Positions 2,196 through 50,425 of a stretch of 64,000 nucleotides of DNA are shown one piece after another. Under the pieces are notes generated by a model. The model was not told where the DNA came from. It saw only the letters and a program-made list of their open reading frames with translations, and made no database searches. How positions within the stretch are numbered: position 1 is the first letter of the stretch; the number at the start of each line of letters is the position of its first letter. The position numbers and the translations under genes were made by a program. This DNA comes from Nitrospirae bacterium GWF2_44_13 (GTDB lineage Bacteria; Nitrospirota; Thermodesulfovibrionia; Thermodesulfovibrionales; UBA1546). The stretch is taken from positions 24,131 through 88,130 of the forward strand of contig MHEE01000017.1 of NCBI GenBank assembly GCA_001805105.1, read 5' to 3'.

Positions 2196-2251
2196 ACCTA
2201 ACATCTGAACTGTGCGAGGCAGCAAAAAAGAGTCCGCACGAAATGTTAGGC
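2196..2251 (+). mobile_element. Integron attC-like recombination site
   Basis: ACCTAAC-ATCTG-AACTGTGCGAG-(loop)-GTCCGCAC-GAAAT-GTTAGGC. The R'' box fits RYYYAAC and the R' box fits GTTRRRY. CCTAACAT pairs with ATGTTAGG (8 bp), GTGCG pairs with CGCAC, and there are unpaired spacers. Confidence 0.6.
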
Positions 2252-2417
2252 GCTGATATATTCATAAATTGTCTTTAACGGTCGCGTCTCCCTTTATTCT
2301 TTCCCGTCCCCGTTATTTCTTCTTGCTTATGTTATATTGCAAGACCTGACCCCATTTACCACCATTTACCATTTAGCAAGGACTATCCGTCTGCACGAGT
2401 GATTTGTTAGATGTTGC

Positions 2418-2837
2418 CTATTTCCTTGAGCTATTCTTATGCAACTCAGCAAGTATTTTCCAAATGCATTTGTCAAAACGATTCTTAACGTTATATTCCC
2501 ATAATCTAATAACGCCCCATCTACCTTTTTTTAAAATACGATTAACGTCTTTATCGCGCTTTCGGTTACGCGCAATTTTAGCGCACCAATATGCAATATT
2601 TGTTTGCGGCATAATACATCGCTTAGGGTGGCCGTGCCAAAAGTCAGAATCTATAAACACTGCAATTTTCTTTCTCCTGAAGACAATATCTGGGTTTCCA
2701 GTTATAGATTCGGCATGACTTGCGAAATAGATTTTTCTTCTTTTTAATTCACGCATTATCAAACGCTCCGGCTTAGTTCCAGCCGAACGGATATTTTGCA
2801 TGTTTTTGCGGCGTTGCTCTTTGGTAAGATTATCCAT
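2418..2837 (-). CDS. vsr: Very short patch repair endonuclease (T:G mismatch, m5C-associated)
   Basis: From the internal Met: MDNLTKEQRRKNMQNIRSAGTKPE...GNPDIVF...FWHGH, a typical Vsr signature. Its ATG overlaps the stop of the upstream nuclease gene (ATGGATAA). Confidence 0.85.
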   Translation of the reverse strand: MDNLTKEQRRKNMQNIRSAGTKPERLIMRELKRRKIYFASHAESITGNPDIVFRRKKIAVFIDSDFWHGHPKRCIMPQTNIAYWCAKIARNRKRDKDVNRILKKGRWGVIRLWEYNVKNRFDKCIWKILAELHKNSSRK

Positions 2838-3840: not shown

Positions 3841-3852
3841 TCGTATAGTGTT

Positions 3853-7846: not shown

Positions 7847-8514
7847 AGGAACCAAGCCTTCCAGTTACGGCATTCTTCTCTTTTTTGCTTCACGTGACTT
7901 TTATCTTTACAGCACTGATAACAATTAAAAATGCAACCCGCTTCACTCTGCCCTCTGCGTATATTGTAAGCCTTGTCAGCACTGAAGTCAGCGGACAGCC
8001 CCGAGCCGCTCGGGGGACAGCCGTTCAGCCGGACGAGCCTGAACAAAAAATGCAACTGCCTTCAGAGCCTTCAAAAGACAAAGCCTCAGAGGACGCAAAA
8101 CAATATAGCTCGGACAGAATAGCAGCGTTAGAGGCAACAAGAAAGGCAAAGCACATTGTTAAGCTGAGAAACATGGTTTCTATCAAGGGCGCTGACAAGC
8201 AAGGGAAAGATGCAAAAGAAATCGCTCCTCCTTTAAAAAATGGCGGCAATGAAACTTCAATATTAGAAGGTTATTCTAAGAGGATAGGAAAAGAGATAAG
8301 GCAGCGCTGGGCCTTCCCCGAGGCATGGGGGGAAAACCTTGAGGCAGTAATATCGGTAACTATAATGTCGAACGGGACTGTTAAGATAAACAGTGTCGAA
8401 AAAAGCTCGGGCAATGTCCTCTTTGACCGCTCTGTCCTTCGAGCCATTAATAAAGCAAGCCCTGTTTCTCCTCCTCCGCATGAGATGGAGATAGGATTGA
8501 GGTTTACGCCATGA
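7843..8514 (+). CDS. tolA: TolA/TonB-like energy transducer
   Basis: N-terminal TM segment, a charged linker and a TonB_C-like C-terminal domain. Its position between tolR and tolB supports the call. Confidence 0.7.
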   Translation: MKEPSLPVTAFFSFLLHVTFIFTALITIKNATRFTLPSAYIVSLVSTEVSGQPRAARGTAVQPDEPEQKMQLPSEPSKDKASEDAKQYSSDRIAALEATRKAKHIVKLRNMVSIKGADKQGKDAKEIAPPLKNGGNETSILEGYSKRIGKEIRQRWAFPEAWGENLEAVISVTIMSNGTVKINSVEKSSGNVLFDRSVLRAINKASPVSPPPHEMEIGLRFTP

Positions 8515-9800
8515 AGAAAGGTGTCAGGTGTCAGGTGTCAGGTGTCAGCAAAAAACTGTTCACTGTTTTTCTGCTATTCACTATTCACTTTTCATTTTTA
8601 ACTTGCGAAGCGAAAATCTACATTGACATAACCTCTCCTGCGATAAAAAAACTTCCGATTGCTATTCAGGAATTCAGCGGCACGGAAGGAAAACAGATTG
8701 CAGACATCATAAGGGAGGACCTTGAGTTTACGGGTTTTTTCCTTTCAATTGACAGGGCTGCCTATTTAGAGAAATCCAGCGAGACTTTCAATCCTAAAAA
8801 CTGGACTGTAATCGGCGCAGAGGCTGTTATAAAGGGAACTGTGCGCGGAGAACAAAACCTAACAGCAATCGTATCGCTTTATGATACAAGCGAAGGCAGG
8901 GAGGTCTTAAGGAAGGAATACAAAGGAACAAAGGCTTCCATCAGGTATCTTGGCCACACTATTGCAGGTGATATATACCAGCATATAACAGGCGAAAAGG
9001 GGATATTCAGGACAAAGGTGGCATTTGTTGCAGAAGACGAGGGCAAAAAAGGCCTCTATCTGATGGACTGGGATGGCACGGCTATTAAACGGCTCGGAAT
9101 TAAAGGGGATTTCGTCCTCAGGCCGCACTGGTCGCAGGACGGCAGCAGGATGGTCTACTCCTCTGAAAGGGGTGGACAATGGGGGATATATTTGTTAGAC
9201 TTTACGAAAATGACGGAAAAAAAAGTTTTTGCCTCCAGAGGGCTTAATATCACAGGCAATTTTTCCCCTGACGGAGATGAGATTATGTTTTCATCATCGC
9301 AGGATGAGACGTATGGTTTATATAATTTAAGGATTTCAGATTCAAAACTTACAAGAATAACCTCTGCAAGATGGATAGAGATTTCGCCCGCTGTCTCGCC
9401 TGACGGAAAACTCGTTGCATTTGTATCAGACCGCGGCGGAACTCCCCAGATATATATAATGAACAGAAGCGGATATGACACAAGAAGGGTAACATTTGAA
9501 GGCTCGTATAATACCTCGCCAAGCTGGTCGCCCGACAACAAAAAGATTGTGTTCGTCGGCAGAGTCTCAGGCAAGCACCAGATTTTTATTATCTCGCCTG
9601 ACGGCTCAGCTCTTAACCAGATCACAGACAAGGGAAATAACGAAGACCCTTCATTTTCTCCTGATGGAAGATTTATAATATTCTCGTCTGACAGAAACGG
9701 AGGCAGCGGCATTTACATGATGAGGGCAAACGGAGAATCACAAAAGAAAATAACCCCGCCGTGGTTACGGGCCTTTGGCCCAAGGTGGTCGCCGAATTAA
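8511..9800 (+). CDS. tolB: TolB periplasmic beta-propeller protein
   Basis: 429 aa with a TolB N-domain and repeated PxWSPDG beta-propeller blades. ATGA overlap with tolA. Confidence 0.95.
   Translation: MKKGVRCQVSGVSKKLFTVFLLFTIHFSFLTCEAKIYIDITSPAIKKLPIAIQEFSGTEGKQIADIIREDLEFTGFFLSIDRAAYLEKSSETFNPKNWTVIGAEAVIKGTVRGEQNLTAIVSLYDTSEGREVLRKEYKGTKASIRYLGHTIAGDIYQHITGEKGIFRTKVAFVAEDEGKKGLYLMDWDGTAIKRLGIKGDFVLRPHWSQDGSRMVYSSERGGQWGIYLLDFTKMTEKKVFASRGLNITGNFSPDGDEIMFSSSQDETYGLYNLRISDSKLTRITSARWIEISPAVSPDGKLVAFVSDRGGTPQIYIMNRSGYDTRRVTFEGSYNTSPSWSPDNKKIVFVGRVSGKHQIFIISPDGSALNQITDKGNNEDPSFSPDGRFIIFSSDRNGGSGIYMMRANGESQKKITPPWLRAFGPRWSPN
8520..8594. repeat. Heptamer arrays at the 5' end of tolB (GGTGTCA x4, then CTATTCA x2-3)
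   Basis: aggtgtc aggtgtc aggtgtc aggtgtc at 8520-8548 is read as GVRCQVSGVS. ctattca ctattca cttttca at 8574-8594 is read as part of the signal peptide (FTIHFSF). Confidence 0.9.
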
Positions 9801-9817: not shown

Positions 9818-10393
9818 ATGAAAAGGATTTTTGTATCGTTTCTGGCTTTTGTTTTAGTTTTCGCTTTTGCAGGATGCGCAAAAAGGACGGTAACCGCGCC
9901 TGATGGGCAGGAAGCGCCAAAGGAAACAGCTCAAAAAGCCGCACCTGTTGAGCAGAAGGCAGAGGAGCCGGTTATGGCAAAGGCAGAGCCTAAGAAGGTG
10001 GAAACCGTGCCGGTAAAGGAAGTCACAGAGGCAAAATCTTCCCAGTTCGGAACTATACTTTTTGATTTTGACAAATACACTGTAAGGGAAGATGCAAAGC
10101 CAACCCTGAAGGCTGTAGCAGACTGGATGATGAAAAATAAAGATGCAAAGATAATCCTGGGAGGGCACTGTGACGAGAGAGGGACTAATGAATACAACCT
10201 TGCGCTCGGAGAAAAAAGGGCAAAATCTGCAAGGGATTACATCGTATCAGCAGGCGTAACAAAGAAAAGGCTCGATACGATAAGTTATGGCGAGGAGAAA
10301 CCGCTCTGCAAAGAGCAGACTGAAGACTGCTGGCAGAAAAACAGAAGAGTTCAGTTTGTACATCAAACATCGTCAGGAAAAGCAGGCAAATAA
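9818..10393 (+). CDS. pal: Peptidoglycan-associated lipoprotein Pal (OmpA family)
   Basis: Start chosen at the ATG preceded by AAGGAGGAGG. It has a lipobox (FAGC) and an OmpA_C domain (GHCDERGTNEYNLALGEKRA). Confidence 0.9.
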   Translation: MKRIFVSFLAFVLVFAFAGCAKRTVTAPDGQEAPKETAQKAAPVEQKAEEPVMAKAEPKKVETVPVKEVTEAKSSQFGTILFDFDKYTVREDAKPTLKAVADWMMKNKDAKIILGGHCDERGTNEYNLALGEKRAKSARDYIVSAGVTKKRLDTISYGEEKPLCKEQTEDCWQKNRRVQFVHQTSSGKAGK

Positions 10394-27423: not shown

Positions 27424-29064
27424 TTACATCCTTTCAGGAGCGCTGAGTCCCAATATCTCAAAACCGTCCTTCAGGACAATCCTCACTGCCTCGCATAAAG
27501 CAAGCCTTGCCTTGGTCAGATTGGCATCGTCTGTTACCACCTTATGCCTGTGATAGTAAGGGTGAAACATCCCTGCGAGTTCTTGAAGATAAAATGTTAT
27601 CCTGTGCGGCTCATGCGCAATGACAGCCCCTTCAAATGCCATCTGATATGCAAGCAGTTTCTTTATTATCCTTATCTCCTCAGGAAGAGATAAAAGGCTG
27701 AGATCCGCTTCATCCGGTTTTTCAACATTTATCCCCTGCTCCTTTGCGTGAGAGAATATGCTGTTTATGCGCGCATTTGCATACTGCACATAAAAAACAG
27801 GGTTTTCCGCTGACTGTGCTTTTGCAACCTCGAGGTCAAATTCAAGGTGGCTGTCAGGACGCCGCGTGAGGAATATGAACTTTGTCGTATCTGCGCCAAC
27901 TTCGTCAATCACCTCTTTCAGAGTCACAAATTCCCCTGCCCTCTTTGACATTTGAACAGGCCTGCCGCCTCTAAGCAGCGAAACCATCTGGACCAGCAAA
28001 ACCTTCAGCCTTTCCTTTGGATAACCGAGCGCCTGAATCACAGCCTGTATCCTTGGAATATACCCGTGATGGTCGGCGCCCCAAATGTCTATAAGCTCAT
28101 CAAATTCTTTCTCCACCTTATTCCTGTGGTATGCAATGTCAGGCGCAAAATAAGTATACTCTCCGTCTTTTTTAATCACGACCCTGTCCTTGTCATCTCC
28201 GAATACGGTTGACCTGAACCACACTGCGCCGTCTTCTTCATAGATGTAATCACGCTCTTTCAGGTCATTTATAGACTGCATCACCTCTCCTCTTTCATAA
28301 AGCTCTCGCTCGCTCTGCCATGTGTCAAAAGTAATGCCGAATTCCTTTAAGTCCTGCTTTATGCCCTCAAGCATCAGCCTGTAAGAAAAATCCGTAAAAA
28401 ATTCTCCCGCCTCTTCGATGGATGCCTCTGCATATTTATTGCCGTAATTCTTTATTGCTTTGTTTGCAATGTCCTCGATGTAAAAACCCTTATAGCCGTC
28501 TTCAGGAGAAGGATAATCTATGCCGAGCAGTTGGTTATATCGCGCAAATACTGAAAGCCCCAACAGCTTCACCTGTCTTCCCGCATCATTTACATAGAAC
28601 TCCTTTTCAACTTTATAGCCTGCAGCGCTCAGCAGATTTGACAATGCAGAGCCGACAGCAGCGCCCCTGCCGTGTCCGAGGTGAAGGGGCCCTGTGGGGT
28701 TTGCGCTTACGAATTCAATCTGGATTCTCCTGCCTTTTCCGATATCAGCTCTCAAAAACCCAGAGCTGTCTTTTATCAGGCTTTTTAACTCTGAATAAAT
28801 GTATTGCCTTGAGAATGTAAAATTGATGAACCCGGGCCCTGCAATGTCTATTTTCTCAAAAACATCTTTTTCAGCAATGGCATTTACAATATCTTCCGCT
28901 ATCTTCCTTGGCGGTTTTTTGAGGATTTTTGACAAAGACATTGCAGCAGGGGTCGCAAGGTCGCCGAATGACTCTTCCTTCGGCAATTCTATAGCTATCT
29001 CAGGAACAGCGAGGCCAAGCTGTTTAACTGCGCTCTCTATGATGTCATGCAGTTTCTTTTTCAT
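27424..29064 (-). CDS. argS: Arginine--tRNA ligase
   Basis: 546 aa with a HIGH-type motif (PTGPLHLGHGR) and a C-terminal DALR anticodon-binding domain. Confidence 0.95.
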   Translation of the reverse strand: MKKKLHDIIESAVKQLGLAVPEIAIELPKEESFGDLATPAAMSLSKILKKPPRKIAEDIVNAIAEKDVFEKIDIAGPGFINFTFSRQYIYSELKSLIKDSSGFLRADIGKGRRIQIEFVSANPTGPLHLGHGRGAAVGSALSNLLSAAGYKVEKEFYVNDAGRQVKLLGLSVFARYNQLLGIDYPSPEDGYKGFYIEDIANKAIKNYGNKYAEASIEEAGEFFTDFSYRLMLEGIKQDLKEFGITFDTWQSERELYERGEVMQSINDLKERDYIYEEDGAVWFRSTVFGDDKDRVVIKKDGEYTYFAPDIAYHRNKVEKEFDELIDIWGADHHGYIPRIQAVIQALGYPKERLKVLLVQMVSLLRGGRPVQMSKRAGEFVTLKEVIDEVGADTTKFIFLTRRPDSHLEFDLEVAKAQSAENPVFYVQYANARINSIFSHAKEQGINVEKPDEADLSLLSLPEEIRIIKKLLAYQMAFEGAVIAHEPHRITFYLQELAGMFHPYYHRHKVVTDDANLTKARLALCEAVRIVLKDGFEILGLSAPERM

Positions 29065-29122
29065 GGAGATTAAGTTTACCCCGTTGCAGCAAAAAACATC
29101 AATATTGTCCTAAGCGATAAAC

Positions 29123-29152
29123 TTGACACTAACTGATAATTTAGGTTATTTT
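29123..29152 (+). promoter_or_regulatory. Putative sigma70 promoter for the tRNA-Ile/tRNA-Ala/5S cluster
   Basis: TTGACA at 29123-29128, with TATTTT or TTATTT 17-18 nt downstream, about 60 nt before tRNA-Ile. Confidence 0.45.
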
Positions 29153-29210
29153 AATCACTCTGGTTTTTGCTCTTTTAAAGTTATTTGCGGCCGGTAAGGT
29201 GGTTTTGTTT

Positions 29211-29287
29211 GGGCCTATAGCTCAGATGGTTAGAGCGCGCGCCTGATAAGCGCGAGGTCGATGGTTCGATTCCACCTAGGCCCACCA
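29211..29287 (+). tRNA. tRNA-Ile (anticodon GAT)
   Basis: GGGCCTATAGCTCAGATGGTTAGAGC..., anticodon loop CTGATAA, T arm GGTTCGATTCC and an encoded CCA. Confidence 0.95.
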
Positions 29288-29288
29288 C

Positions 29289-29361
29289 GGGGGTGTAGCT
29301 CAGCTGGGAGAGCGCCTGGTTTGCAACCAGGAGGTCATCGGTTCGATCCCGTTCACCTCCA
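29289..29361 (+). tRNA. tRNA-Ala (anticodon TGC)
   Basis: GGGGGTGTAGCTCAGCTGGGAGAGC, anticodon loop TTTGCAA, and the G3-U70 identity pair (GGGGGTG/CACCTCC). No CCA is encoded. It starts 1 nt after tRNA-Ile. Confidence 0.95.
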
Positions 29362-29417
29362 CTTGATTTTTTCTATTTTTAACTGTTATTGTATAACCGC
29401 TTCTCAGAAATAAACTT

Positions 29418-29533
<116 letters not shown>

Positions 29534-29542
29534 TTAAAGAAA

Positions 29543-29569
29543 AGCCCCGATAATATCGGGGCTTTTTTA
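29543..29569 (+). terminator. Rho-independent terminator after 5S
   Basis: AGCCCCGAT-aat-ATCGGGGCT followed by TTTTTT. Confidence 0.85.
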
Positions 29570-29683
29570 TTTCCCGCCCCGCATAATTATTTCATTACTT
29601 ATATCGCACGCGATATAATATTCAACAGAAAATTATTTGCTTTATTTTTCAATCAGTTAAGCAGGCCTTCAGGTAGATTTTTC

Positions 29684-29752
29684 TTGACAGAATGTCCCCA
29701 ACCCCATAAAATCTAACAAAAAGACGCACACGGCATAAAAGATAATGTTAGC
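29684..29752 (+). promoter_or_regulatory. Near-consensus sigma70 promoter plus conserved leader module (copy 1)
   Basis: TTGACA-17 nt-TAAAAT, then CTAACAAAAAG...ATAAAAGATAATGTTAGC. Homologous to 48585-48652. Confidence 0.6.
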
Positions 29753-29766
29753 TTCACAATAATAAG

Positions 29767-30345
29767 ATGATAAATGATAAGAATAAAGTCGTGATTGCCG
29801 AGCACTATGGCGACTACGTACCACCTTCCCCAGTCAAGGAACTTATTGCAGAGCTTCTTGGCGGCGTTTCCAATCAATATCTTCGTGGCCTGCAAATGGT
29901 CGCTCTTAGTAGTTCAGCAAGTCTTAACCGAAAGAGCCGTCGTCAGAAAACTCTGGTACAACGACGCAAAGTCGCCGTTGCAAGATGTCAAGGTCTTTAT
30001 AATCAGAAATGGAAAGACCAACAAGCAACTATTCAGCTTTTCGTTGATAATATCATCTAGCCACGATCGCGTTGGATATTTAGAATTCCTTTCTTTAAAC
30101 GGATGATTTTTGGCGACGTATTATTTCATGAATTAGGTCACCATATACACCACACAATGTCACCAAAATTCAAAGAACGAGAAGACGTAGCAGAAGAATG
30201 GAGCAAGAAATTATTTAGAGAATATAATAGGAACCGCTATAGCTATCTAAAGACATTTAAGTTCTTGAAACCTTTATTTAGAATGGCTGCGTGTGCCCTG
30301 AAAATAGCATCTAATATTATTGAAAAACGTGAGTCCCGAAGCTAA
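29767..30345 (+). pseudogene. HExxH metallopeptidase-like gene interrupted by one in-frame TAG
   Basis: ORFs 29767-30060 and 30103-30345 are in the same frame and are separated only by the TAG at 30058-30060. The downstream part carries HELGHHIHH. Confidence 0.6.
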
Positions 30346-30390
30346 CAAATCAATCGAGCCGACAGGGGATAAGCTGTCGGTTTGTTCTTA
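30340..30390 (+). mobile_element. attC-like site or intrinsic terminator
   Basis: AGCTAAC-AAATC shares an 11-nt CTAACAAATC string with the 36426 attC, and the stop codon lies inside the R''-like box. The stem CCGACAG-gggataag-CTGTCGG is followed by TTTGTTCTTATTT. Confidence 0.4.
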
Positions 30391-30459
30391 TTTATCTTAT
30401 TTCCCCTGCGGCTCATTGTGGTCGTTATGGTATTATATAAATAAAATAGGAGGATAAAG

Positions 30460-30684
30460 ATGAAGGAAAAATTAACTGCAATCTTTCAAAAATCGCCTTA
30501 CGGCTATATAGGCTTTATCGAAGAACTTCCCGGAGCTAATACGCAGGGCAAAACTCTTGATGAAGTAAGAAAAAATTTAATTGAGGCAGTCCGCCTTGTT
30601 TTGGACGCTAATAGGCAACTCTTTGAGGAAGAACTTTCCGGTGTTGAAATTATAAAGGAAGACTTTGGAGCAGTAACGGCTTGA
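30460..30684 (+). CDS. hicB: HicB-family antitoxin
   Basis: 74 aa, UPF0150/HicB-like (YIGFIEELPGANTQGKTLDEVRKNLIEAV). Preceded by AGGAGG, with a 4-nt overlap with hicA. Confidence 0.8.
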   Translation: MKEKLTAIFQKSPYGYIGFIEELPGANTQGKTLDEVRKNLIEAVRLVLDANRQLFEEELSGVEIIKEDFGAVTA

Positions 30685-30866
30685 AAAGAAAAGATGTAAT
30701 CCGGCATCTTGAATCAAACGGATGTGACTTTCTACGAGAAGGCGCAAATCATACAGTATATGTAAACCGGAAGAAAAAGAAGGCAAGCACCATTCCCCGT
30801 CATAGAGAGATTGATGAGTATCTTGTCACAAAAATATGTAAAGACCTTGAAATACCGAAACCATAA
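30681..30866 (+). CDS. hicA: HicA-family mRNA interferase toxin
   Basis: 61 aa. KRKDVIRHLESNGCDFLREGANHTVY...IPRHREI matches the HicA/YcfA pattern. Confidence 0.8.
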   Translation: MKRKDVIRHLESNGCDFLREGANHTVYVNRKKKKASTIPRHREIDEYLVTKICKDLEIPKP

Positions 30867-30893
30867 CGCTTTCGTAATATACATCTTTATCCC

Positions 30894-31328
30894 TTAACGC
30901 GCTCTGCACTTTTCGCAATACCCTTTCATTTCAAAGGTATGGCTGACACATCTGAAATTCTCTTTTTTGCAGAGTTGCTCCTGCAGCTTCGAAAGCTTCT
31001 CTGAAAAAAGCTGTATTACCTTCCCACATTTCAGACATATAAGATGGTCGTGATGTTTGTGGCCAAAGATATGCTCGTAATGAGCATGTTTATCAACCCT
31101 TTCTACCTGTTCTACAAGCCCGCATTCAAGAAGAAGCTGAAGCGTTCTGTAAATGGAAGCCCTTGATGCCTTCATCCCCTTGGCTCTGATTTTAAAGAAA
31201 AGGTCTTCGGGGTCAAAATGGCCGTGCTTGGAAAATACCTCGCTTAGAATAGCTGCACGCTCTTTTGTGAGTTTACACCCTTTCTTCTCAAGAAATTCTC
31301 TGAAAATCTTTTCTTCCATCTGTTTCAT
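30894..31328 (-). CDS. fur: Fur-family transcriptional regulator
   Basis: 144 aa with a winged-helix N-domain, a HHDH motif and CxxC pairs (CLKCGKV, CEKC). It lies immediately downstream of feoB. Confidence 0.9.
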   Translation of the reverse strand: MKQMEEKIFREFLEKKGCKLTKERAAILSEVFSKHGHFDPEDLFFKIRAKGMKASRASIYRTLQLLLECGLVEQVERVDKHAHYEHIFGHKHHDHLICLKCGKVIQLFSEKLSKLQEQLCKKENFRCVSHTFEMKGYCEKCRAR

Positions 31329-31331
31329 TGC

Positions 31332-33275
31332 TTAGAACGTTACGTTAAATGCCCTTAATAGCCAGTTGAGCACGCCTCCGCCAAGAAAGGCGAATGGGAA
31401 AACAACCGCAACAATCCCGAGTGCCGTCCTCATCCCGCGTTCCTTAACAATCATAAAGAAATTAGCAAGGCATGGAATAAAGAGAGTGATGGTAACAAGG
31501 CTTACAACAGACTGAACAGGCGTCAGCATTCCCTTTTCCGCCATTGCAAACAGGCCTGCTGCGCCATAATCCCTTCTCAGAAAACCAAGGATAAATGATT
31601 CTGTTGTCTTTTCAGGCAGCCCCAAAAGATTTACGACTACAGGAGAAGCTATGGTCTCAAGCACACCGAGCAGATTAAGCTTGTGAAGAACAAACAGTAT
31701 TAACGTCCCGAGTATAAAAAGCGGAACTGCTTCCTTCAGATACCATTCAATTCTTCCTGCTGTCTTTACAAGGATATTTATAATATTAGGCCTTCTTATC
31801 GGAGGTATTTCAAGGAAGAATTCTGTCTTTTCTCCTTTTATAACCTTTGATGCAAGGTATCCTGAAAAGAGAAGGGTCAATAAAATAGTCCCTGCCCAGA
31901 CAAGTGTTGCCTTAAAAGATAAAGCGCCGAGCATTCCAAGTATCACTCCAAGCTGCGCAGAGCAGGGAACGGCAAGCGCAAGGAGAAATGTTATTATCAG
32001 CCGCTCTTTTTTTGTCTCGAGTATTCTTGATGTCATAACTGCCATCGTGCCACAGCCAAGCCCTAAAACCATCGGCAGCACAGCCTTGCCGTTAAGTCCC
32101 ATCAGATTGAATATCCGGTTGCTCATTATTGCAAGCCTCGGCAAATACCCGCTGTCCTCAAGGATTGCAAAGGCAATAAAAAAAGTCGCCGTAATAGGCA
32201 GGATTATGGCTATGGCATAGGTAAGGGCAACAGTAATCAGCCCGTATTCTCCTACAAGTAATTCCTGTATAAAATCTGATGGAGCTATTGTCTGAACAAC
32301 CTTTATCGCCATCGGGTTAAGGTATTTGCCGAATATTGTGTTCTCAAAAAAATCAACGAGAGTCCCCGCGCCCAAAACACCTACAAACTGGTATAGCCCG
32401 TAAAGCACAATCAGCAAAAGAGGGATGCCCCATAAGGGATGCATGCTTATTCTGCCGATGAAAGATAACAGCTTCCCGCCTTCCGCCGGGATTTTTTTTA
32501 GGACTTTGTCCGCTATCTCCCCTGCCGCATCAAGGCGCTGCTTGTTTATCAAAAGACTCAAAGGCTCTTTTACCTTTGACTGGCATTCATCTCTAAGGGC
32601 TTCTATCTCTTTTATGACTTCTGCTTTAAGATTTGCAATCAGCCATTTTTTAAGGCTCTCATCGCCTGATAGTATCATTATGGATAACGCTCTTTTTGAG
32701 ATGCTGATTTGAGGCAGCAGTGACGATATCTTTTCAATGTATTCTTCTATTACATCTTCGTATCTGACCTTAATACAAGGTTTAACGGCGTGCGGGATAG
32801 CGGATTTAATCTCCTTCAAGCCTTTTCTCTGCGGCGCTATAGCGCTTATCACCTCAGCGCCTATCAGCGTTTTAAGGTGATTAATATCTACAACTATCCC
32901 CCTGTCCCTTGCCTCATCCTCCATATTAAGGACGAGAATTGCCGACAGTTCCATTTCCGCTATCTGCAGGGTTATAAGCAGGGACCTTTTTAAATTCTTT
33001 GTGTCGGCAACCTGCACTACAGCTAACGGCTCCTCCTGCAAAAAAATATCCCGCGTAACTTTTTCATCCTCGCTCATCGGAACCATGCTGTTTACTCCAG
33101 GAGTATCGACAACAAGATACCTTTTATTGTCAATTGTCATGTCTCCGTAGGAAACTTCCACAGTTGTGCCCGGATAATTTGATACAGTCACATATTTGTT
33201 TGTCAGGAGCCCGAATATCACGCTCTTGCCGACATTCGGGTTCCCTACAAGGACAATTTTATTGCCTGCGCGCAT
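31332..33275 (-). CDS. feoB: Ferrous iron transporter FeoB
   Basis: 647 aa with an N-terminal G domain (GNPNVGKS, DTPG) and a polytopic membrane domain. No feoA ORF is visible upstream. Confidence 0.95.
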   Translation of the reverse strand: MRAGNKIVLVGNPNVGKSVIFGLLTNKYVTVSNYPGTTVEVSYGDMTIDNKRYLVVDTPGVNSMVPMSEDEKVTRDIFLQEEPLAVVQVADTKNLKRSLLITLQIAEMELSAILVLNMEDEARDRGIVVDINHLKTLIGAEVISAIAPQRKGLKEIKSAIPHAVKPCIKVRYEDVIEEYIEKISSLLPQISISKRALSIMILSGDESLKKWLIANLKAEVIKEIEALRDECQSKVKEPLSLLINKQRLDAAGEIADKVLKKIPAEGGKLLSFIGRISMHPLWGIPLLLIVLYGLYQFVGVLGAGTLVDFFENTIFGKYLNPMAIKVVQTIAPSDFIQELLVGEYGLITVALTYAIAIILPITATFFIAFAILEDSGYLPRLAIMSNRIFNLMGLNGKAVLPMVLGLGCGTMAVMTSRILETKKERLIITFLLALAVPCSAQLGVILGMLGALSFKATLVWAGTILLTLLFSGYLASKVIKGEKTEFFLEIPPIRRPNIINILVKTAGRIEWYLKEAVPLFILGTLILFVLHKLNLLGVLETIASPVVVNLLGLPEKTTESFILGFLRRDYGAAGLFAMAEKGMLTPVQSVVSLVTITLFIPCLANFFMIVKERGMRTALGIVAVVFPFAFLGGGVLNWLLRAFNVTF

Positions 33276-33293
33276 AATCCCTCAGCTTTCTTT

Positions 33294-33322
33294 TTTATAT
33301 TGAGATTGATTCTCAATTACAA
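33294..33322 (-). promoter_or_regulatory. feoB promoter with an embedded palindromic (Fur-box-like) operator
   Basis: On the minus strand: TTGTAA-17 nt-TATAAA. The spacer contains the inverted repeat ATTGAGA-n5-TCTCAAT (33299-33317). Confidence 0.45.
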
Positions 33323-33578
33323 TTGTACTTCAGCCGGACGTGTTTTGTCAAAAAACTTTCATTGTAGATGCGCTGGAAGGATAGGTTCTGACTGAAACAG
33401 ACATGATTGGCTTGAGTGGTATCAGAGATTTTTCGTTGACGTTCTTGGTGAATGGAGCGCTAACAGCCGCAACTGTCTGAACCCCGAAAGCTTTCGGGGT
33501 GAGTTTTGCGGATGTAGCGGAAAGAGCCTTAGAACGACAGAAAAATATCTGCAAAAAGCGACGGCCAATCCTGTCTGT

Positions 33579-33606
33579 TTGTATATCACTTTTCTTGTGC
33601 TATAAT
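33579..33606 (+). promoter_or_regulatory. Putative extended -10 promoter for the response-regulator gene
   Basis: TTGTAT-16 nt-TATAAT, with TGC immediately upstream of the -10 hexamer, about 45 nt before the TTG start. Confidence 0.45.
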
Positions 33607-33653
33607 AACAACATCTTTTATTCCCAATATTTGCTTACAGCAAGGAGGGATAT

Positions 33654-34331
33654 TTGAAGAAAATACTCATAGCTGACTCCCTAAAGCATCTTGTGTCAGG
33701 GGAAAATATCTTAAGCAGAGCCAACACCCTGATACTTACAGCATCCTCCTCTCAGGAAATTCTCTCTATACACAAAAGCGAAAAGGCAGATTTAATAGTA
33801 ATTGACCTTGATATGCCCGGCATGTCCGGCGACGAACTATGCTCCCTGCTGCGCAAAGAGCCTGACCATGTAAAGGTTCTTATAGCAACAGAGCCTAAAG
33901 AAACGGATATTAAGCGAGCCGAGCAATGCGGCGCCGATACCTACATCACAAAGCCGATTAATTCTGCTTTATTATTCAGTAAAATTGCCTCCCTTCTTGA
34001 TGTCCAGACCAGAAAGGCTTACAGGATGCCGGTGAAAGCAACAGTTGCGGGAGAAATGGGGAACATTAAGCTTACTGCCAGCGCTATTAATGTAAGCTCT
34101 ACCGGCATACTTATTGAGTCTGAGCAGCCTCTTAATGTGAGTGATGTCATCAACTGCTCATTTCTTCTGCCGGGAACCCTTGCCATCTCTGTTAAGGGGG
34201 AGGTCGTCCGCATACTTAAAAAACCTGCCGGGAATATTCATCAATACGGAATAAGGTTTACATCAATAAGCGCTTCTGCGCAGCGGATTATAGAGGACTT
34301 TGTAAAGAGCAGAACCGAGTCTGCAGAATAG
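33654..34331 (+). CDS. Response regulator receiver domain fused to a PilZ domain
   Basis: TTG start after AAGGAGGG. REC domain (DLIVIDLDMPGMSG...TKP), and a C-terminal part with PilZ-like RxxxR and D/NxSxxG (NVSSTGILIES) motifs. Confidence 0.75.
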   Translation: MKKILIADSLKHLVSGENILSRANTLILTASSSQEILSIHKSEKADLIVIDLDMPGMSGDELCSLLRKEPDHVKVLIATEPKETDIKRAEQCGADTYITKPINSALLFSKIASLLDVQTRKAYRMPVKATVAGEMGNIKLTASAINVSSTGILIESEQPLNVSDVINCSFLLPGTLAISVKGEVVRILKKPAGNIHQYGIRFTSISASAQRIIEDFVKSRTESAE

Positions 34332-34353
34332 AATTGTTCCACGTGAAACAATT
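34331..34353. repeat. Palindrome ATTGTTCCACGTGAAACAATT (left copy)
   Basis: Near-identical to 37143-37165 (one mismatch). Together they bracket the GmrSD-like and toxin-antitoxin genes. Confidence 0.85.
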
Positions 34354-34445
34354 TTGTGCTATATTGTTTCAGATTATCGGAAAAAGCGAAGGCTCGGGGA
34401 TTATATGTTAAACCTTGAAATGAATAAAATTGAGGGATCATAAAA

Positions 34446-36416
34446 ATGCAGGCAAAAGAAACTAAACTGCAAGACATAATTGAAGGGACAAAACAGTATG
34501 TCATCCCTCTTTTTCAGCGTACTTATAGCTGGACAAACAAAGAATGGGACGTTTTATGGAAAGACCTAATGGAACTATCCGAAACAGAAAACCCACGTTC
34601 TCATTTCATTGGTTCAATCGTTAATATGCCGACCGTTTCAGTGCCCGAGGGGGTCGCAAAATTTCTTCTGATTGATGGCCAGCAACGTTTGACAACAATC
34701 TTTATTCTGTTGACTCTTTTGCGCAATAAGGCAAGAGAGTCGCAAAATCACGAATTCGCCGAGGAAATCAACAATACCCTTCTTGTCAATCCATACAAGA
34801 AGGACAACGACTTTTTCAAATTAATGCCCACACAGGTTGACAGAGACATATATAAGAACTTTATCAACGGAAAATCAAATGCGACAGACAATCAACTGAC
34901 AAGGGCATACAATTTCTTTGAAAAGAAGCTCAGACAGGTTCCATTAGAACATGAGAAGCTGAAAAAAATCATTACGAGTTATTTCTCGGTTGTCAGTATT
35001 GTGCTCGATACTGACGATAACCCGTATTTAGTTTTTGAAAGTCTGAATGCTAAAGGTCGGCCCTTAACGCAGGCAGACCTCATTAGAAATTATTTCTTTA
35101 TGCGCATTCACATAGACAATCAAGACGAAGTTTACAGCAACTATTGGCAGCCAATGCAAACTGCATTGAATGACAGCCTAACCGAATATATCAGACACTT
35201 CCTCATGAGAGACGGCAGCATCATAAAGCAGAATGACGTTTATTATGCCCTCAAAGAAAAAGTAGCGTCGAACAACGCAATTGATTATCTGAAGGAACTG
35301 CAAAAATATTCAGTTTACTATCAGCGTCTGATCTATCCGGAACTTGAGCCTGAGGAAGATTTGCAAAAGTATTTTCGCAGATTAAACAGAATAGAGGTCA
35401 CCACAGCTTATCCTTTGCTTTTAAACTTTTACGGTAATTATACGGGAAACAAGATAAGCAAGACCGATTTTGTTGCCATCCTAAAAATACTTGAGAATTA
35501 CCTTATTCGCCGGTTCGTTTGCAATGTGCCTACAAATCAGCTGAACAAAATCTTTCCGGCAGTTTATCCGCTATTAATCACAAAGTATCAGGATAGCCAT
35601 ACAGAAGGTATAAAGGAAATCTTACAAGGCAGAGGTTATCCAAAAGACACCGAGTTTTATACAAGGTTCAAGGAAGCAAAGTTTTATGGCGCCGGAGACA
35701 GGCAGATAAAAACTAAACTCATTTTAGAGACTCTCGAAGAAAACTTTGCTCACAAAGAGGCTGTGCCGTTTGACAATTTATCAATAGAACATGTAATGCC
35801 TCAAACATTATCTGAGTGGTGGCAGCATCATATTGGTGAAGATTGGGAAGAGACTCACGAACTCTTCCTGCACACAATTGGAAATCTGACTTTAACTGCC
35901 TACAATACAGAGATGTCAAATGATGATTTTATAGCCAAAAAGAAGGCCTATAACGAAAGTCATTTGGAACTAAACAAATATTTCGCTCCTCTTTCATCTT
36001 GGAGACGAGCCGAAATTGAGAGTAGGGCAGATGCATTAGCAAAACAAGCTCTTGCGATTTGGCGTTATTTCGGTCAAGAAACTTCATCATCATCTGGCCT
36101 AAAGGAAGTTACAGGCACATCTCCGACTGCTCTAAAGATGTTGGGACAGCAGTTTGAAGTTAAAACATGGCGGGATGTTTTAGAGTTAACGCTCAATACA
36201 GTTGCTGATCTCGAACCCGACAAGTTTGAAATTATTGCCCAGAACTTCCCGCGCTATCTCGGTAAAGACAAAAATAAATTTAGAGCTGTGCGACAGCTAC
36301 AAAATGGTTTTTACATTGAGGTCAACTTGTCAGCTCAAAGCATACAAAAGTTTTGCTCTCAAGCGATGGAGACCATTGAACTTACATCTGATGACTGGAG
36401 CGTAATAGTAAACTGA
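34446..36416 (+). CDS. GmrSD-like DUF262/DUF1524 nuclease (type IV restriction family) with an extra C-terminal domain
   Basis: 656 aa with the N-terminal DUF262 motifs QRTYSW and DGQQRLTT, and a DUF1524 His-Me finger region (IEHVMPQ...HTIGNLTL...N). About 130 aa lie beyond the nuclease domain. Confidence 0.8.
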   Translation: MQAKETKLQDIIEGTKQYVIPLFQRTYSWTNKEWDVLWKDLMELSETENPRSHFIGSIVNMPTVSVPEGVAKFLLIDGQQRLTTIFILLTLLRNKARESQNHEFAEEINNTLLVNPYKKDNDFFKLMPTQVDRDIYKNFINGKSNATDNQLTRAYNFFEKKLRQVPLEHEKLKKIITSYFSVVSIVLDTDDNPYLVFESLNAKGRPLTQADLIRNYFFMRIHIDNQDEVYSNYWQPMQTALNDSLTEYIRHFLMRDGSIIKQNDVYYALKEKVASNNAIDYLKELQKYSVYYQRLIYPELEPEEDLQKYFRRLNRIEVTTAYPLLLNFYGNYTGNKISKTDFVAILKILENYLIRRFVCNVPTNQLNKIFPAVYPLLITKYQDSHTEGIKEILQGRGYPKDTEFYTRFKEAKFYGAGDRQIKTKLILETLEENFAHKEAVPFDNLSIEHVMPQTLSEWWQHHIGEDWEETHELFLHTIGNLTLTAYNTEMSNDDFIAKKKAYNESHLELNKYFAPLSSWRRAEIESRADALAKQALAIWRYFGQETSSSSGLKEVTGTSPTALKMLGQQFEVKTWRDVLELTLNTVADLEPDKFEIIAQNFPRYLGKDKNKFRAVRQLQNGFYIEVNLSAQSIQKFCSQAMETIELTSDDWSVIVN

Positions 36417-36425
36417 TAATACAAG

Positions 36426-36491
36426 GTCTAACAAATCGCGCAAGAGGGACGCAGCAAAAGCCCGCGGCGCCCCTTAACTCAAGCGTTAACC
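36426..36491 (+). mobile_element. Integron attC-like recombination site
   Basis: GTCTAAC-AAATC-GCGCAAGAGGGACGC-(loop)-CCGCGGCGCCCCTTAAC-TCAAG-C-GTTAACC, beginning 10 nt after the stop codon. Confidence 0.7.
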
Positions 36492-36666
36492 ATCTATGAT
36501 AAAAAGAATTGTGAAAATTTTAGCGGTAGCGCTTGTTGCTCAACTCTTTGTTAAAATTCATACTATCACCTGCCTAAAATACCGTCTCTTTGTGGTATCA
36601 TAAGCCATAGCTTCTGAAAGAAAAGTTTGTTAAGCTATATTCAAGAAAAAACAGGGAGTTGTAAGG

Positions 36667-36867
36667 ATGAGTAAGATAGAGCAAATTGAAAAAGAAGTTC
36701 AAGGATTACAGCCCGCTGAACTTCAGGCCTTTCGTAAATGGTTCTGGGATTTTGACACAGAGGTATGGGACCACCAGTTTGAGAAAGACGCCCTGACAGG
36801 AAAACTTGACAGACTTGCCGAAGTGGCACTCAGGTCATACAAGTCCGGGCACTGCTCCGAAATTTGA
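36667..36867 (+). CDS. Type II antitoxin (partner of the RelE/ParE-like toxin)
   Basis: 66-aa ORF. Its TGA overlaps the TTG start of the toxin gene (TTGA). Confidence 0.65.
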   Translation: MSKIEQIEKEVQGLQPAELQAFRKWFWDFDTEVWDHQFEKDALTGKLDRLAEVALRSYKSGHCSEI

Positions 36868-37118
36868 AGCATTTTGCCTCGCCAGAGTTTTGGGGACTCT
36901 ATAAGACACTGCCGCAGTCTGTTCAAGACCTTGCTGATAGAAATTTTGCATTATTAAAAAATGACACTCGTCATCCCTCGTTACATCTGAAGAAAGTTGG
37001 CCGTTATTGGTCAGTCCGTATCGGAATTCGTTATCGGGCTGTTGCTGTTGAGGTGGCCGACGGGCTGCTTTGGTTTTGGATCGGCAGCCATGAAGACTAC
37101 AATAACCTGATGGGTTAA
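36864..37118 (+). CDS. RelE/ParE-superfamily toxin
   Basis: 84 aa. The pattern HPSLHLKKVGRYWSVRIGIRYRAV...WFWIGSHEDY is typical of this toxin fold family. Confidence 0.7.
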   Translation: MKHFASPEFWGLYKTLPQSVQDLADRNFALLKNDTRHPSLHLKKVGRYWSVRIGIRYRAVAVEVADGLLWFWIGSHEDYNNLMG

Positions 37119-37142
37119 ACACCCAAACCTGAATTGCGGCCG

Positions 37143-37165
37143 GATTGTTCCACGTGGAACAATTG
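37143..37165. repeat. Palindrome ATTGTTCCACGTGGAACAATT (right copy)
   Basis: The core TTGTTCCACGTGGAACAA is a perfect palindrome. It is a direct repeat of 34331-34353. Confidence 0.85.
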
Positions 37166-37167
37166 CA

Positions 37168-37935
37168 TTAAACATAACCCGTTACAGGGCCGACCTCGTA
37201 TATTTCTTCCGGCAGAGCGCCTTCTTCTTTAGCAACTTTAAGGGGCGGTGTTGAAACCTGATTGGACCTCGCTGCCGAAACAAAAAATCCCTCCTTTGAA
37301 ACAGCGCCTATTTCAACAATAAACGCCTTATCAGGCCCTACGCCTACATAGGTATCTCCCAGCCTTCCATAAACAGGAACGTCAAAAACCAGATTGGCAT
37401 TTTTGCCGTCAAAATAGATTCCTGTAACATCATAGACCCTTAAAACAAGCGTTCCCTTAATCTTTGACAGTGTATTTTCCTTTACTTCCCAGTAGGCAAA
37501 AAGTTTCCATGGATCAACTGTCATTAAGGTAATCCTGTCCTCGCCATATTCGGCAGGCAATCCTTTTTTTGTGGTAACAGCAGGCAGTGAAGGGCTTTTT
37601 TCTACCTTTTGAAGGGTTCTTTGCGGGATTTTCGGTATCTTCTTTGTCGGCAGGGCAATTTTTTTAGGTTCTTTTTTTATTGCCTTTTCTGTTGCTTTCT
37701 TCCTGACCGCTGTTTTTTTCTCTTTCTCTGCTTTTCTGACCGCTGGTTTTTTTGTGACCGTTTTTTTCTGTTCTTTAATCTCTTTCTTTGATTTTATTGG
37801 CTTTTTTGCCTTTGTCTTCCTTTTTGCAACAGCCTTCTTCTCTGTTTTTTTAGCAGGTTTTTTATCCTTTATTTTTTCCATCTTTTTTGCCGGTTTTGCG
37901 GTCTTTTTGCTCATACTCTTAACCCTTATTTTCAT
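37168..37935 (-). CDS. DUF4912-like protein with a lysine-rich, histone H1-like N-terminal half
   Basis: 255 aa. About 110 residues are KKPAKK/KKTA-type repeats. The C-terminal part (RITLMTVDPWKLFAYWEV...LVLRVYDVTG) matches the DUF4912 pattern. Confidence 0.65.
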   Translation of the reverse strand: MKIRVKSMSKKTAKPAKKMEKIKDKKPAKKTEKKAVAKRKTKAKKPIKSKKEIKEQKKTVTKKPAVRKAEKEKKTAVRKKATEKAIKKEPKKIALPTKKIPKIPQRTLQKVEKSPSLPAVTTKKGLPAEYGEDRITLMTVDPWKLFAYWEVKENTLSKIKGTLVLRVYDVTGIYFDGKNANLVFDVPVYGRLGDTYVGVGPDKAFIVEIGAVSKEGFFVSAARSNQVSTPPLKVAKEEGALPEEIYEVGPVTGYV

Positions 37936-48584: not shown

Positions 48585-48652
48585 TTGACAGTACCCTCTC
48601 CCCTTCTTATAATTCATCAAAAAGCAGATGCAGTATAAAATGTAATGTTAGC
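48585..48652 (+). promoter_or_regulatory. Consensus sigma70 promoter plus conserved leader module (copy 2)
   Basis: TTGACA-17 nt-TATAAT, then TCATCAAAAAG...ATAAAATGTAATGTTAGC. Homologous to 29684-29752. Confidence 0.65.
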
Positions 48653-48677
48653 CATAAAATAATTTAAGGAGAGAATC

Positions 48678-49229
48678 ATGAAAAATTCGATTGGCAAAAA
48701 CAGGTTTCAGGCTGTGCCGAGTTCACGTGAATATGAAAGGTCAAAAAGTAAAACCTATGAGTGGGTTCCAAAGTATCAAATAATAGCTGCCTTTATCATT
48801 ATTTTTCAGTGCATGTATTTCGCAAGTATTACAGAAGGTTGGAAAGGATATTTACTTAACGTTGTAGCAATAGTGGTTTTATATTTTATAGTCTCAGGAA
48901 TATTCAAGCGGATTACAATGTACATTGAAGCAATGGATAAAGAAATTTCTAATCTTAGACATCAATTAACAGGGTTTGTTTGTGATACTTCGCTTGGTAG
49001 AGTCTCCGGAGCCGACTTAAAAAGAATTGCTGTAGCAGCAAATGATCTGCCATGGAGGACTAACCAAAATGATTTATCAAGAGATGATTTCAATTTAATT
49101 AGTCGTGCCTGGTTTTTTTGGAAGGACCAAAATGGCTTTAACTGGCAGGACGAGGCTGAATGTATTAACTGTGGTCAAGCACGTAAAGTGCATTCAAAAG
49201 AAGGAACTTGTCCAACTTCAACTGAATAA
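48678..49229 (+). CDS. Hypothetical membrane protein (2 predicted TM helices, Cys-containing C-terminal domain)
   Basis: 183-aa ORF with a good RBS (AAGGAGAG). Hydrophobic segments are IIAAFIIIFQCMYFASI and LLNVVAIVVLYFIVSGIF. I recognise no family. Confidence 0.6.
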   Translation: MKNSIGKNRFQAVPSSREYERSKSKTYEWVPKYQIIAAFIIIFQCMYFASITEGWKGYLLNVVAIVVLYFIVSGIFKRITMYIEAMDKEISNLRHQLTGFVCDTSLGRVSGADLKRIAVAANDLPWRTNQNDLSRDDFNLISRAWFFWKDQNGFNWQDEAECINCGQARKVHSKEGTCPTSTE

Positions 49230-49230
49230 T

Positions 49231-49288
49231 GGCTAACCAGGCGCTCCAGCCGACCGCTAATAGCGTCGGCTGACCTTCATCGTTCCTC
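49231..49288 (+). mobile_element. Integron attC-like recombination site
   Basis: GGCTAAC-CAGGC-GCTCCAGCCGACCGC-taata-GCGTCGGCTGACC-TTCAT-C-GTTCCTC. The stem has two bulged bases and starts 2 nt after the stop codon. Confidence 0.55.
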
Positions 49289-49378
49289 ATAATGAAAAAT
49301 CCAAAATGAAACCGGTCTGTCCGCATTTCACTTTTCATAACCCTTAACTCTCGCTCTAACAGATACACTCCCCTTGTA

Positions 49379-50425
49379 ATGTATAATAATCTTATGTTCA
49401 TCGCAGGGCTGACAGGCAATTACGGCATGGGAAAGAGCGCTGTGCTTTCTATGTTCAGAGAGCTTGGCGCTGTTACGATTGACGCTGATTGGATTGTTCA
49501 GCAGCTTCTAAAAGAAAAAGCTATCCTCAAAAAGATAAAAACACTTTTTGGCGCAGGAGTATTTGGTAAAAAAGGCACTCTTGACAAGAGCAAAATCGCT
49601 CAAAGGATTTTCAGGAATAAATCACTGCGGATTAAGCTTGAAAACCTTCTTCATCCATTAGTCTTTGAAAGGATTGACGATTTCTTTAGAAAAACTAAAA
49701 ACGGAAAGAAGGTTTTTATCGTAGAAGCTCCTTTGATATTTGAGAGGGGATACGAAAGCAGGTTTGATAAGATGATTGCTGTATTCACCAAAGAAATCAC
49801 CGCAATTAACAGGCTGTCCATGCACGGCATATCGCCAAAGGAGGTAGTTGAAAGGCTCAAATGCCAGCTTCCGATAAAGGAAAAGATAAAGAGGTCGGAT
49901 TATAAGATGGATAACAGCGGGCTTCCTGAAAAGACAAGAAAACATGTTACGGCTGTTTACAAAGAGCTCTTAAAAGAGGCAAAAACTAAAAATCTTATTC
50001 TTGAAGGCAGGGTGGACAGGGCTGCAAAAATCCTCGGAAAGCCTTTTTCAGTAGAAGGGACAGTCATTAAAGGCGCCGGAAGGGGAGAAAAGTTCCTTCA
50101 TACTCCGACTGCAAATATTTCATTTAAAGGCTATTCTCCCAAAGAAGGAGTTTATGCCGTCAAAGTCTCCTATTCACCCATTCACCTATTCACCCATTCA
50201 CCATTATATAAAGGCGTTGCAAATATTGGAAAAAATCCTACCTTCGGCGAAATGCCCCTTAGCCTTGAGGTTCATATCTTCAATTTCTCAGGGAATCTTC
50301 TCGGCAAAAAACTTAAGGTGCGCTTCATAAAGCATATCCGTGATGAGAAAAAGTTTCCAAATATAAAGGCGCTGGAAGCGCAAATAAAGAAAGACATTAA
50401 AAAGGCAAAAGCAATACTGAAATGA
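49379..50425 (+). CDS. coaE: Dephospho-CoA kinase fused to a riboflavin kinase domain
   Basis: The N-terminal ~195 aa are CoaE-like (GLTGNYGMGKS...HPLV...EAPLIFE). The C-terminal ~150 aa are the RibF C-terminal kinase domain (GTVIKGAGRGEKFLHTPTAN...EVHIFNFSGNLLGKKLKVRFIKHIRDEKKF). Confidence 0.8.
   Translation: MYNNLMFIAGLTGNYGMGKSAVLSMFRELGAVTIDADWIVQQLLKEKAILKKIKTLFGAGVFGKKGTLDKSKIAQRIFRNKSLRIKLENLLHPLVFERIDDFFRKTKNGKKVFIVEAPLIFERGYESRFDKMIAVFTKEITAINRLSMHGISPKEVVERLKCQLPIKEKIKRSDYKMDNSGLPEKTRKHVTAVYKELLKEAKTKNLILEGRVDRAAKILGKPFSVEGTVIKGAGRGEKFLHTPTANISFKGYSPKEGVYAVKVSYSPIHLFTHSPLYKGVANIGKNPTFGEMPLSLEVHIFNFSGNLLGKKLKVRFIKHIRDEKKFPNIKALEAQIKKDIKKAKAILK
50172..50203. repeat. Octamer array ATTCACCN x4 inside the riboflavin kinase domain
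   Basis: attcaccc attcacct attcaccc attcacca, read as SPIHLFTHSP. Confidence 0.9.

Follow-up and report, generated by a model that had tools for sequence, protein, structure and literature searches.

The window, meaning the whole 64,000-nt stretch of DNA analysed here, carries a gene for a GmrSD-family nuclease whose stop codon is followed by a 66-nt hairpin on the plus strand (GTCTAACAAATCGCGCAAGAGGGACGCAGCAAAAGCCCGCGGCGCCCCTTAACTCAAGCGTTAACC). By its sequence, its layout, its model score and the cassette in which it stands, this hairpin is a genuine integron attC site. Its R'' box (36426–36432) lies 9 nt past the TGA of the open reading frame, and its R' box occupies 36485–36491. The two boxes agree with the RYYYAAC/GTTRRRY core-site pattern, including its distance of 50–140 nt, and the final positions of R' are supplied by the downstream DNA, as expected. 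Gene and attC together form a cassette that ends at G/TT on both flanks, the slash marking the crossover point. In a PADLOC search, the reading frame matches Orf5 at 703 bits, with HEC-06 and mREase_IV matching as well, and its product presumably serves in defence. The cassette is probably transcribed from a conserved leader that lies immediately to its left.

Three other slots are found in the same window, namely between 5S rRNA and fur (5S-Fur), between a radical-SAM gene and coaE (radical-SAM-CoaE), and between dxs and tlyA (dxs-tlyA). As the sequence-only reading had stated, the attC sites follow accessory ORFs and are dispersed among housekeeping genes. The features of the four slots are collected in Table 1.

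Table 1. Features of the window and of related loci. A slash marks the crossover; bits and E values are those of the class-1-derived covariance model, and signatures pair the 5' end of a cassette with its own R'' box.
Feature	Position	Strand	Description
attC of GmrSD cassette	36426–36491	+	R'' GTCTAAC, R' GTTAACC; crossover between G36485 and T36486; rank 1, 30.0 bits, E 1.9e-5
attC, 92 nt	30340–30431	+	AGCTAAC...GTTATGG; rank 2, 17.7 bits, E 0.031
attC, 3' end uncertain	49231–49288 (model hit 49231–49349)	+	GGCTAAC...GTTCCTC; rank 3, 17.3 bits, E 0.04
attC-like site	2196–2251	-	GCCTAAC...GTTAGGT; rank 4, 16.3 bits on minus vs 9.3 on plus strand, E 0.072
GmrSD gene cassette, 2078 bp	34408–36485	+	from TT of G/TTAAAC to G of attC R' box
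GmrSD-family (DUF262/DUF1524) type IV restriction-like nuclease gene	34446–36416	+	Pfam GmrSD_N and GmrSD_C
Conserved leader	34352–34409	+	ends ...ATATG/TT; extended -10-like TGCTATATT; promoter reading from sequence alone
5' remnant of small conserved ORF (MIKRIVKILAV...)	36496–36530	+	after crossover in all relatives; right-junction alignment
66-aa ORF and ParE-like toxin	36667–37118	+	Pfam ParE_like; supplants most of small ORF
parS site 1	34334–34351		fits parS consensus TGTTNCACGTGAAACA (16-bp palindrome)
parS site 2	37145–37162		same consensus
Two-ORF cassette (29767–30060, 30103–30345), no assigned function	29748–30424	+	5' G/TTAGCT; signature GTTAGCT, R'' AGCTAAC
HicB/HicA cassette	30425–30867	+	5' G/TTATGG; signature GTTATGG, R'' remnant CCATAAC at 30861–30867; other attC parts lost
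Cassette with ORF 48678–49229 (183 aa, no family match)	48648–49282	+	5' G/TTAGCC; signature GTTAGCC, R'' GGCTAAC
Promoter/attI-like module, copy 1	29684–29749	+	TTGACA, 17 nt, TAAAAT ... ATAAAAGATAATG/TT
Promoter/attI-like module, copy 2	48585–48649	+	module alignment and regex search
Further module copies	L013 8718–8782; L016 2971–3035; L018 8632–8695; L020 9283–9348; L021 231–296		also in L241
Left junction, window			...GATTATATG/TTAAACC
Left junction, L013			...ATTAATTG/TTAGCTT
Left junction, L012			...ATTGATTG/TTGGGTA
Left junction, L016			...GTTATATG/TTATCTG
Signature, L013 HNH			GTTAGCT, R'' AGCTAAC
Signature, L012 EcoRV-type R-M			GTTGGGT, R'' ACCCAAC
Signature, L018			GTTAGCG, R'' CGCTAAC
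Signature, L020			GTTCGAA, R'' TTCGAAC
Signature, L016			ATTAGCC, R'' GGCTAAC

The likeness of the hairpin to known attC sites was traced with blastn, in which window positions 36420–36500 served as the query and 72,556 plasmids (7.3 Gb) as the target. Positions 36423–36493 aligned to aadA attC sites in 1904 plasmid records, at about 75% identity and an E value of 0.01. The aadA1 site, read in plasmid locus L011 at 4004–4063 (TGTCTAACAATTCGTTCAAGCCGACGCCGCTTCGCGGCGCGGCTTAACTCAAGCGTTAACC), contains CTTAACTCAAGCGTTA, the very string through which the sequence-only reading had linked the right half of the hairpin to aadA-type sites; that link was therefore correct. Like the aadA1 and aadA2 attC sites of class 1 integrons, the site belongs to the same length class (66 nt here, 60 nt there), has the identical layout R''-spacer-L''...L'-spacer-R', and carries GTCTAACAA at the left and CTTAACTCAAGCGTTA at the right. 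Additionally, a bulged C and a bulged A occupy equal positions in the top-strand L'' arm. It differs from them in the sequence of its central stem, in one additional bulged base and in two mismatched pairs at the base of the L box; moreover, its cassette encodes a nuclease, not resistance, and belongs to an uncultured Nitrospirota bacterium from groundwater. The assignment of the window to Nitrospirota (Thermodesulfovibrionales) comes from the neighbouring genes and from relatives of PolA. The same plasmids yielded nothing useful by blastn for 2196–2251 and 49231–49288, and Rfam held no family matching the region at the gathering threshold or at E ≤ 1.

A covariance model, a proxy and not IntegronFinder's own, was used to score all positions of the window on both strands. 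Its training set comprised 16 attC sites taken from six plasmids with class 1 integrons, at the points where annotated cassettes end, and its paired elements were R''/R' and L''/L'. The four sites listed by the sequence-only reading turned out to be exactly the four top hits, and all remaining hits in the window had E > 3. Over 1.37 Mb of unrelated loci scored alongside, every hit stayed below 16 bits, one of them at 15.9. A reciprocal model, trained on eight Nitrospirota sites only and run on class 1 loci, recovered class 1 attC sites where annotated cassettes end, each on the strand of its cassette, with scores of 49 bits for aadA1, 47 for both aac(6')-IIa and aadA2, 39 for aadB, 37 for cmlA5 and 30 for aac(6')-Ib4; the attC sites of CARB-2 and SIM-1 were also recovered, at lower scores. 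In the alignment of the eight sites, 73% of cells pair against 63% in column shuffles (0 of 500 attain the real figure), and pairing falls to 23–35% once the partners are slid. Compensatory changes are present in four of the five L-box pairs.

Folding by minimum free energy (MFE) does not set the hairpin apart, the z-scores being -0.3 and -0.9, and unconstrained folding of this site was discarded as an uninformative test. Placed in the aadA1 register, its bottom strand shows a bulged G, T and T with spacers of 5 and 6 nt, and the MFE structure picks another pairing. Single-base bulges on the 3' arm are seen in the bottom-strand MFE structures of 30340–30431 and of the sites in L013, L014, L018 and L020. 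At 30340–30431 they are a T and a G, 6 bp apart as in aadA1. This site had been described as degenerate and as ending at 30390; it is actually a complete 92-nt attC.

For the site at 49231, the model puts R' at 49343–49349, whereas canonical geometry and two bulged bases favour 49282–49288. The site at 2196–2251 scores as attC on the minus strand, and its orthologue in L241 reaches 18.6 bits, also on the minus strand. Both the model scores and the way in which the module is oriented in L241 favour the minus strand as the top strand of this site, whereas the position of the single bulged base argues the opposite.

A further signature is found at the left end of the cassettes. In eight of nine distinct cassettes, the 5' G/TTNNNN and the R'' box of the same cassette are perfect reverse complements. 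The ninth is the GmrSD cassette, which begins with GTTAAAC in the window, one mismatch from the complement of its R'' box GTCTAAC, and with GTTAGAC, the exact complement, in the copies of Desulfamplus (L235) and of a second Nitrospirota genome (L239). Homology of the window to these two copies begins at G/TTAGACC and ends inside attC.

The GmrSD cassette has moved between genomes. Homologues with 78–98% identity occur in Nitrospirota, Desulfamplus, Candidatus Brocadia and Patescibacteria. In Desulfamplus, the gene stands in a same-strand array between two attC hits, one upstream (7883–7968, 27 bits) and one downstream (9981–10065, 20 bits), with further hits along the array, and in L239 the cassette occupies a locus unrelated to the slot of the window. 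One unit is thus present in several genomic contexts, that is, the Desulfamplus array, the other Nitrospirota locus and the window slot. In Candidatus Brocadia (L236–L238, 8001–9974), the GmrSD ORF lies alone inside a Rieske/cytochrome b operon, with no recognisable attC or cassette leader beside it, and one Nitrospirota copy likewise has no recognisable attC. Dozens of homologues (P0005–P0120) are found on contigs of 2.1–2.5 kb, approximately the cassette length, as is expected if variable flanks interrupt assembly at the ends of the cassette.

The slot itself was followed through sister species, whose loci were anchored on PolA. These loci have common flanks: a gene for a PilZ response regulator borders the slot at one end, and genes for DUF4912 and PolA border it at the other. 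The content between them is an HNH nuclease in L013, an EcoRV-type restriction-modification system in L012, and a DUF4136-like protein, DUF2971 and AbiU2 in L016. The leader is common to the window slot and to L012, L013, L014 and L016, and similarity halts at GTT in L012, L013 and L016. At the right junction, a species-specific attC is followed by the return of similarity at G/TTAACCAT..ATGATAAAAAG, which is the start of a small conserved ORF. In the window, most of this ORF has given way to the pair at 36667–37118, for which the covariance model finds no attC. Cassettes have been replaced between species at this slot, and the synteny comparison called for by the sequence-only reading came out in its favour, since the sister species hold other cassettes bounded exactly at G/TT. 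Together with the aadA alignment and the covariance-model rank, these junctions uphold the attC reading of 36426–36491.

The attC sites of the sister slots were also recognised by the class-1-derived model, at 28.8 bits in L014, 22.6 in L013, 16.4 in L016 and 14.7 in L012, and the L013 slot contains two attC sites. In decayed sites of L012 (5995–6054) and L016 (7573–7655), the crossover G of GTT has changed to A (CATTAACC and CATTGTG, respectively), a change that would block further recombination.

The other slots of the window show a comparable pattern of occupancy. The 5S-Fur slot holds a 1.3-kb insert of three cassette units in the window and is empty in L013 and L016. Its neighbourhood (29211–29534) clusters tRNA-Ile(GAT), tRNA-Ala(TGC) and 5S rRNA without adjoining 16S or 23S genes, and the same is true of L013 and L016. 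In L245, 50 nt separate the radical-SAM gene from coaE and the slot is empty; an MmeI-like system fills it instead in L243, L244 and L246. The gene at 49379–50425 combines dephospho-CoA kinase (CoaE) with a riboflavin kinase domain, a fusion that is lineage-wide. With regard to attC content, no attC belongs to either the ParE or the VapBC toxin-antitoxin pair, and HicBA retains only an R'' remnant.

The dxs-tlyA slot is variable, with HicAB and FlK in L241 and a type I S subunit in L240. In the window, a single operon there (2418–4986, minus strand) encodes a C5-cytosine methylase together with Vsr and an NgoFVII-type PLD restriction enzyme. An antitoxin-family ORF (TIGR02574) at 1866–2138 (minus strand) has no toxin partner and shares 45 nt with the 3' end of dxs; this ORF, of which only the 3' part persists in L240, looks like a truncated cassette. 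An attC-like 3' end, GGGA(C/G)A(C)GCGACCGTTAAA, recurs in the window at 2275–2293 (minus strand), in L241 at about 8575–8600 (minus strand) and in L246 at 4343–4362. All slots are invariant within the species, with 17–24 contigs each, all in the same context; no presence/absence variation was found among these contigs, and nothing points to present-day activity. The GmrSD context, for instance, is identical in seventeen contigs from several samples.

At the 5S-Fur and radical-SAM-CoaE slots, the first cassette directly follows a recurring 66-nt module. It is built of TTGACAG, 17 nt, TATAAT, about 35 nt and then ATAAAAGATAATG/TT, so that it ends in ...ATAATG/TT. The copy at 29684–29749 is the best promoter-like site in 29000–37500, with 11 of 12 matches. 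Sequences diverge right past GTT in every module copy, and among 2.24 Mb of fetched DNA the module is restricted to this lineage. In L241, it lies upstream of FlK in the orthologue of the 2196–2251 slot, and the window copy has diverged, GTC replacing GTT. Upstream of polA, the module and the distal flank are common to four species at an orthologous locus, and the interior differs between them. The slot that holds 36426–36491 has a different leader, ending in ...ATATG/TT. Judged by these sequence patterns, the module is a candidate attI-like site. Its interpretation as a short ORF-less cassette was rejected, as it has only a 9-bit covariance-model hit (29711–29753) and no stem. The earlier proposal that cassettes were inserted at secondary GTT sites is borne out as far as insertion at G/TT is concerned; with their conserved module or leader, however, three of the four slots do not look like arbitrary targets.

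The GmrSD slot is additionally bracketed by the only two copies of the palindrome TTGTTCCACGTGRAACAA in the window. A parS pair brackets the slot in L012, L013 and L016 as well, and the window therefore probably lies near the replication origin. The palindrome was also considered as an att site or target duplication and ruled out in this role, being the universal parS, which occurs at every GC content; it is present in metagenome contigs of GC 0.29–0.72.

A phmmer search for IntI1-like proteins among stop-to-stop ORFs of at least 80 aa found none at E ≤ 1 in the window, the sister-species loci or the Desulfamplus locus, and no Phage_integrase family is listed among the neighbouring genes. The window is thus devoid of an integrase at this threshold, as the sequence-only reading had claimed. 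The loci searched have attC sites without a nearby integrase, which is the arrangement of SALIN and CALIN elements, and they have no adjacent intI of the kind that marks a complete integron.

There are strong grounds for confidence in the combined reading that 36426–36491 is a real attC closing the GmrSD cassette, that an integrase acted on it in trans, and that the four slots of the window are alike. The GmrSD cassette would formerly have been a circle. An integron integrase (IntI) would have folded the bottom strand of the cassette attC and recombined it at G/TT with a double-stranded chromosomal GTT site, the product being ...G/TTAAAC-GmrSD-GTCTAAC...G/TTAACC.... The target GTT would have been the end of the conserved, putatively promoter-bearing leader, between the two parS sites and upstream of the small resident ORF. 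The 5S-Fur, radical-SAM-CoaE and dxs-tlyA slots would have formed likewise. The integrase, which is not encoded nearby, would have had to work in trans, and the arrangement therefore fits the SALIN/CALIN class and the attG-type route of cassette spread.

It is unlikely, though a course to be taken seriously, that the cassettes were made by an integrase elsewhere and reached or swapped the slots by homologous recombination through the flanks, e.g., by natural transformation, with the attC sites as passive fossils. Such exchange would suit the conserved flanks on both sides of each slot, the invariance of the slots within species and the mutated crossover G in some relatives, and transformation-driven cassette shuffling has been reported (PMC12614218). 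Nevertheless, the first insertion at each GTT would still require site-specific recombination, and several distinct cassettes lie at the identical nucleotide. More improbable is the reading of the slots as chromosomal integron remnants that lost intI, the classic origin of CALIN elements, instead of insertions outside an integron. Conserved promoter-plus-GTT modules do head the arrays as Pc and attI would, and both the two attC sites of the L013 slot and the three cassette units of the 5S-Fur slot are of the kind that such remnants would leave; however, at least four independent integrons in 64 kb would be required, each losing intI tracelessly, whereas the housekeeping flanks are conserved and hold no intI pseudogene, and the empty sites in relatives indicate clean insertions. 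Finally, it is very improbable indeed that the hairpin is a regulatory stem-loop or plain transcription terminator with a chance likeness to attC, for although it comes directly after a stop codon, has an unremarkable folding energy and has a counterpart at 30340–30431 whose inner hairpin is terminator-like, its own plus strand has no T-run and no terminator call (the tail is ATCTATGATAAAAAG), and the end-to-end alignment with aadA attC sites, the covariance-model rank over a clean background, the cassette signatures and the exact G/TT junctions all stand against this origin.

Insertion by an integrase acting in trans, the preferred reading, can be compared with known systems. SALIN and CALIN elements were reportedly the subject of Cury et al. 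2016. Insertion at attG sites, treated together with SALIN/CALIN elements, takes place at 5'-GWT-3' and is biased towards the origin (Loot et al., bioRxiv 10.1101/2022.09.11.507474). The slots described here are similar in that their attC sites and cassettes have no integrase close by, that insertion is at G/TT (GWT), and that the cassette lies downstream of what is predicted to be a host promoter. They are also probably origin-proximal, as marked by parS, which fits the reported origin bias of attG insertions. Unlike in those systems, several slots are headed by one conserved 66-nt module, and sister species re-use the identical GTT; the shared module and the re-used GTT point to a favoured platform more than to scattered attG sites.

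Defence cargo in integron cassettes has been described (bioRxiv 10.1101/2024.07.02.601719; PMC12614218). The cargo found here, with nucleases, restriction-modification systems, Abi proteins and toxin-antitoxin pairs, resembles the defence and toxin-antitoxin cassettes of sedentary chromosomal integrons, and the GmrSD cassette itself sits in the Desulfamplus array. In contrast to such integrons, there is no long array or intI here, and one to three cassettes per slot stand among housekeeping genes. Integron cassettes of the SALIN/CALIN type are known; it is the arrangement, with four integrase-less slots in the window, that is unusual.

The multi-copy platform is the possible new variant. Tentatively, the lineage (Thermodesulfovibrionales) might bear a dedicated, integrase-less platform in several copies, each consisting of a 66-nt strong promoter and an attI-like site (...ATAATG/TT), at 5S-Fur, radical-SAM-CoaE, dxs-tlyA and upstream of polA. 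Defence and toxin-antitoxin cassettes would then be loaded and swapped at these positions by a single integrase working in trans, and the whole would amount to a distributed integron, not a single array. Because no integrase is linked to any module copy, this platform is offered as a possibility and not as a result.

The GmrSD gene, a putative defence gene, travels as a cassette between Desulfobacterota and Nitrospirota, and close homologues are also present in Planctomycetota and Patescibacteria. The window represents a natural, sequence-level case of cassette spread beyond integrons, in a phylum whose integrons have received little study. Its junctions are resolved to the nucleotide, and both empty sites and alternative cassettes are at hand in sister species. 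If the module is indeed a recombination platform, a single integrase could serve many small loci, among which integron function would be distributed.
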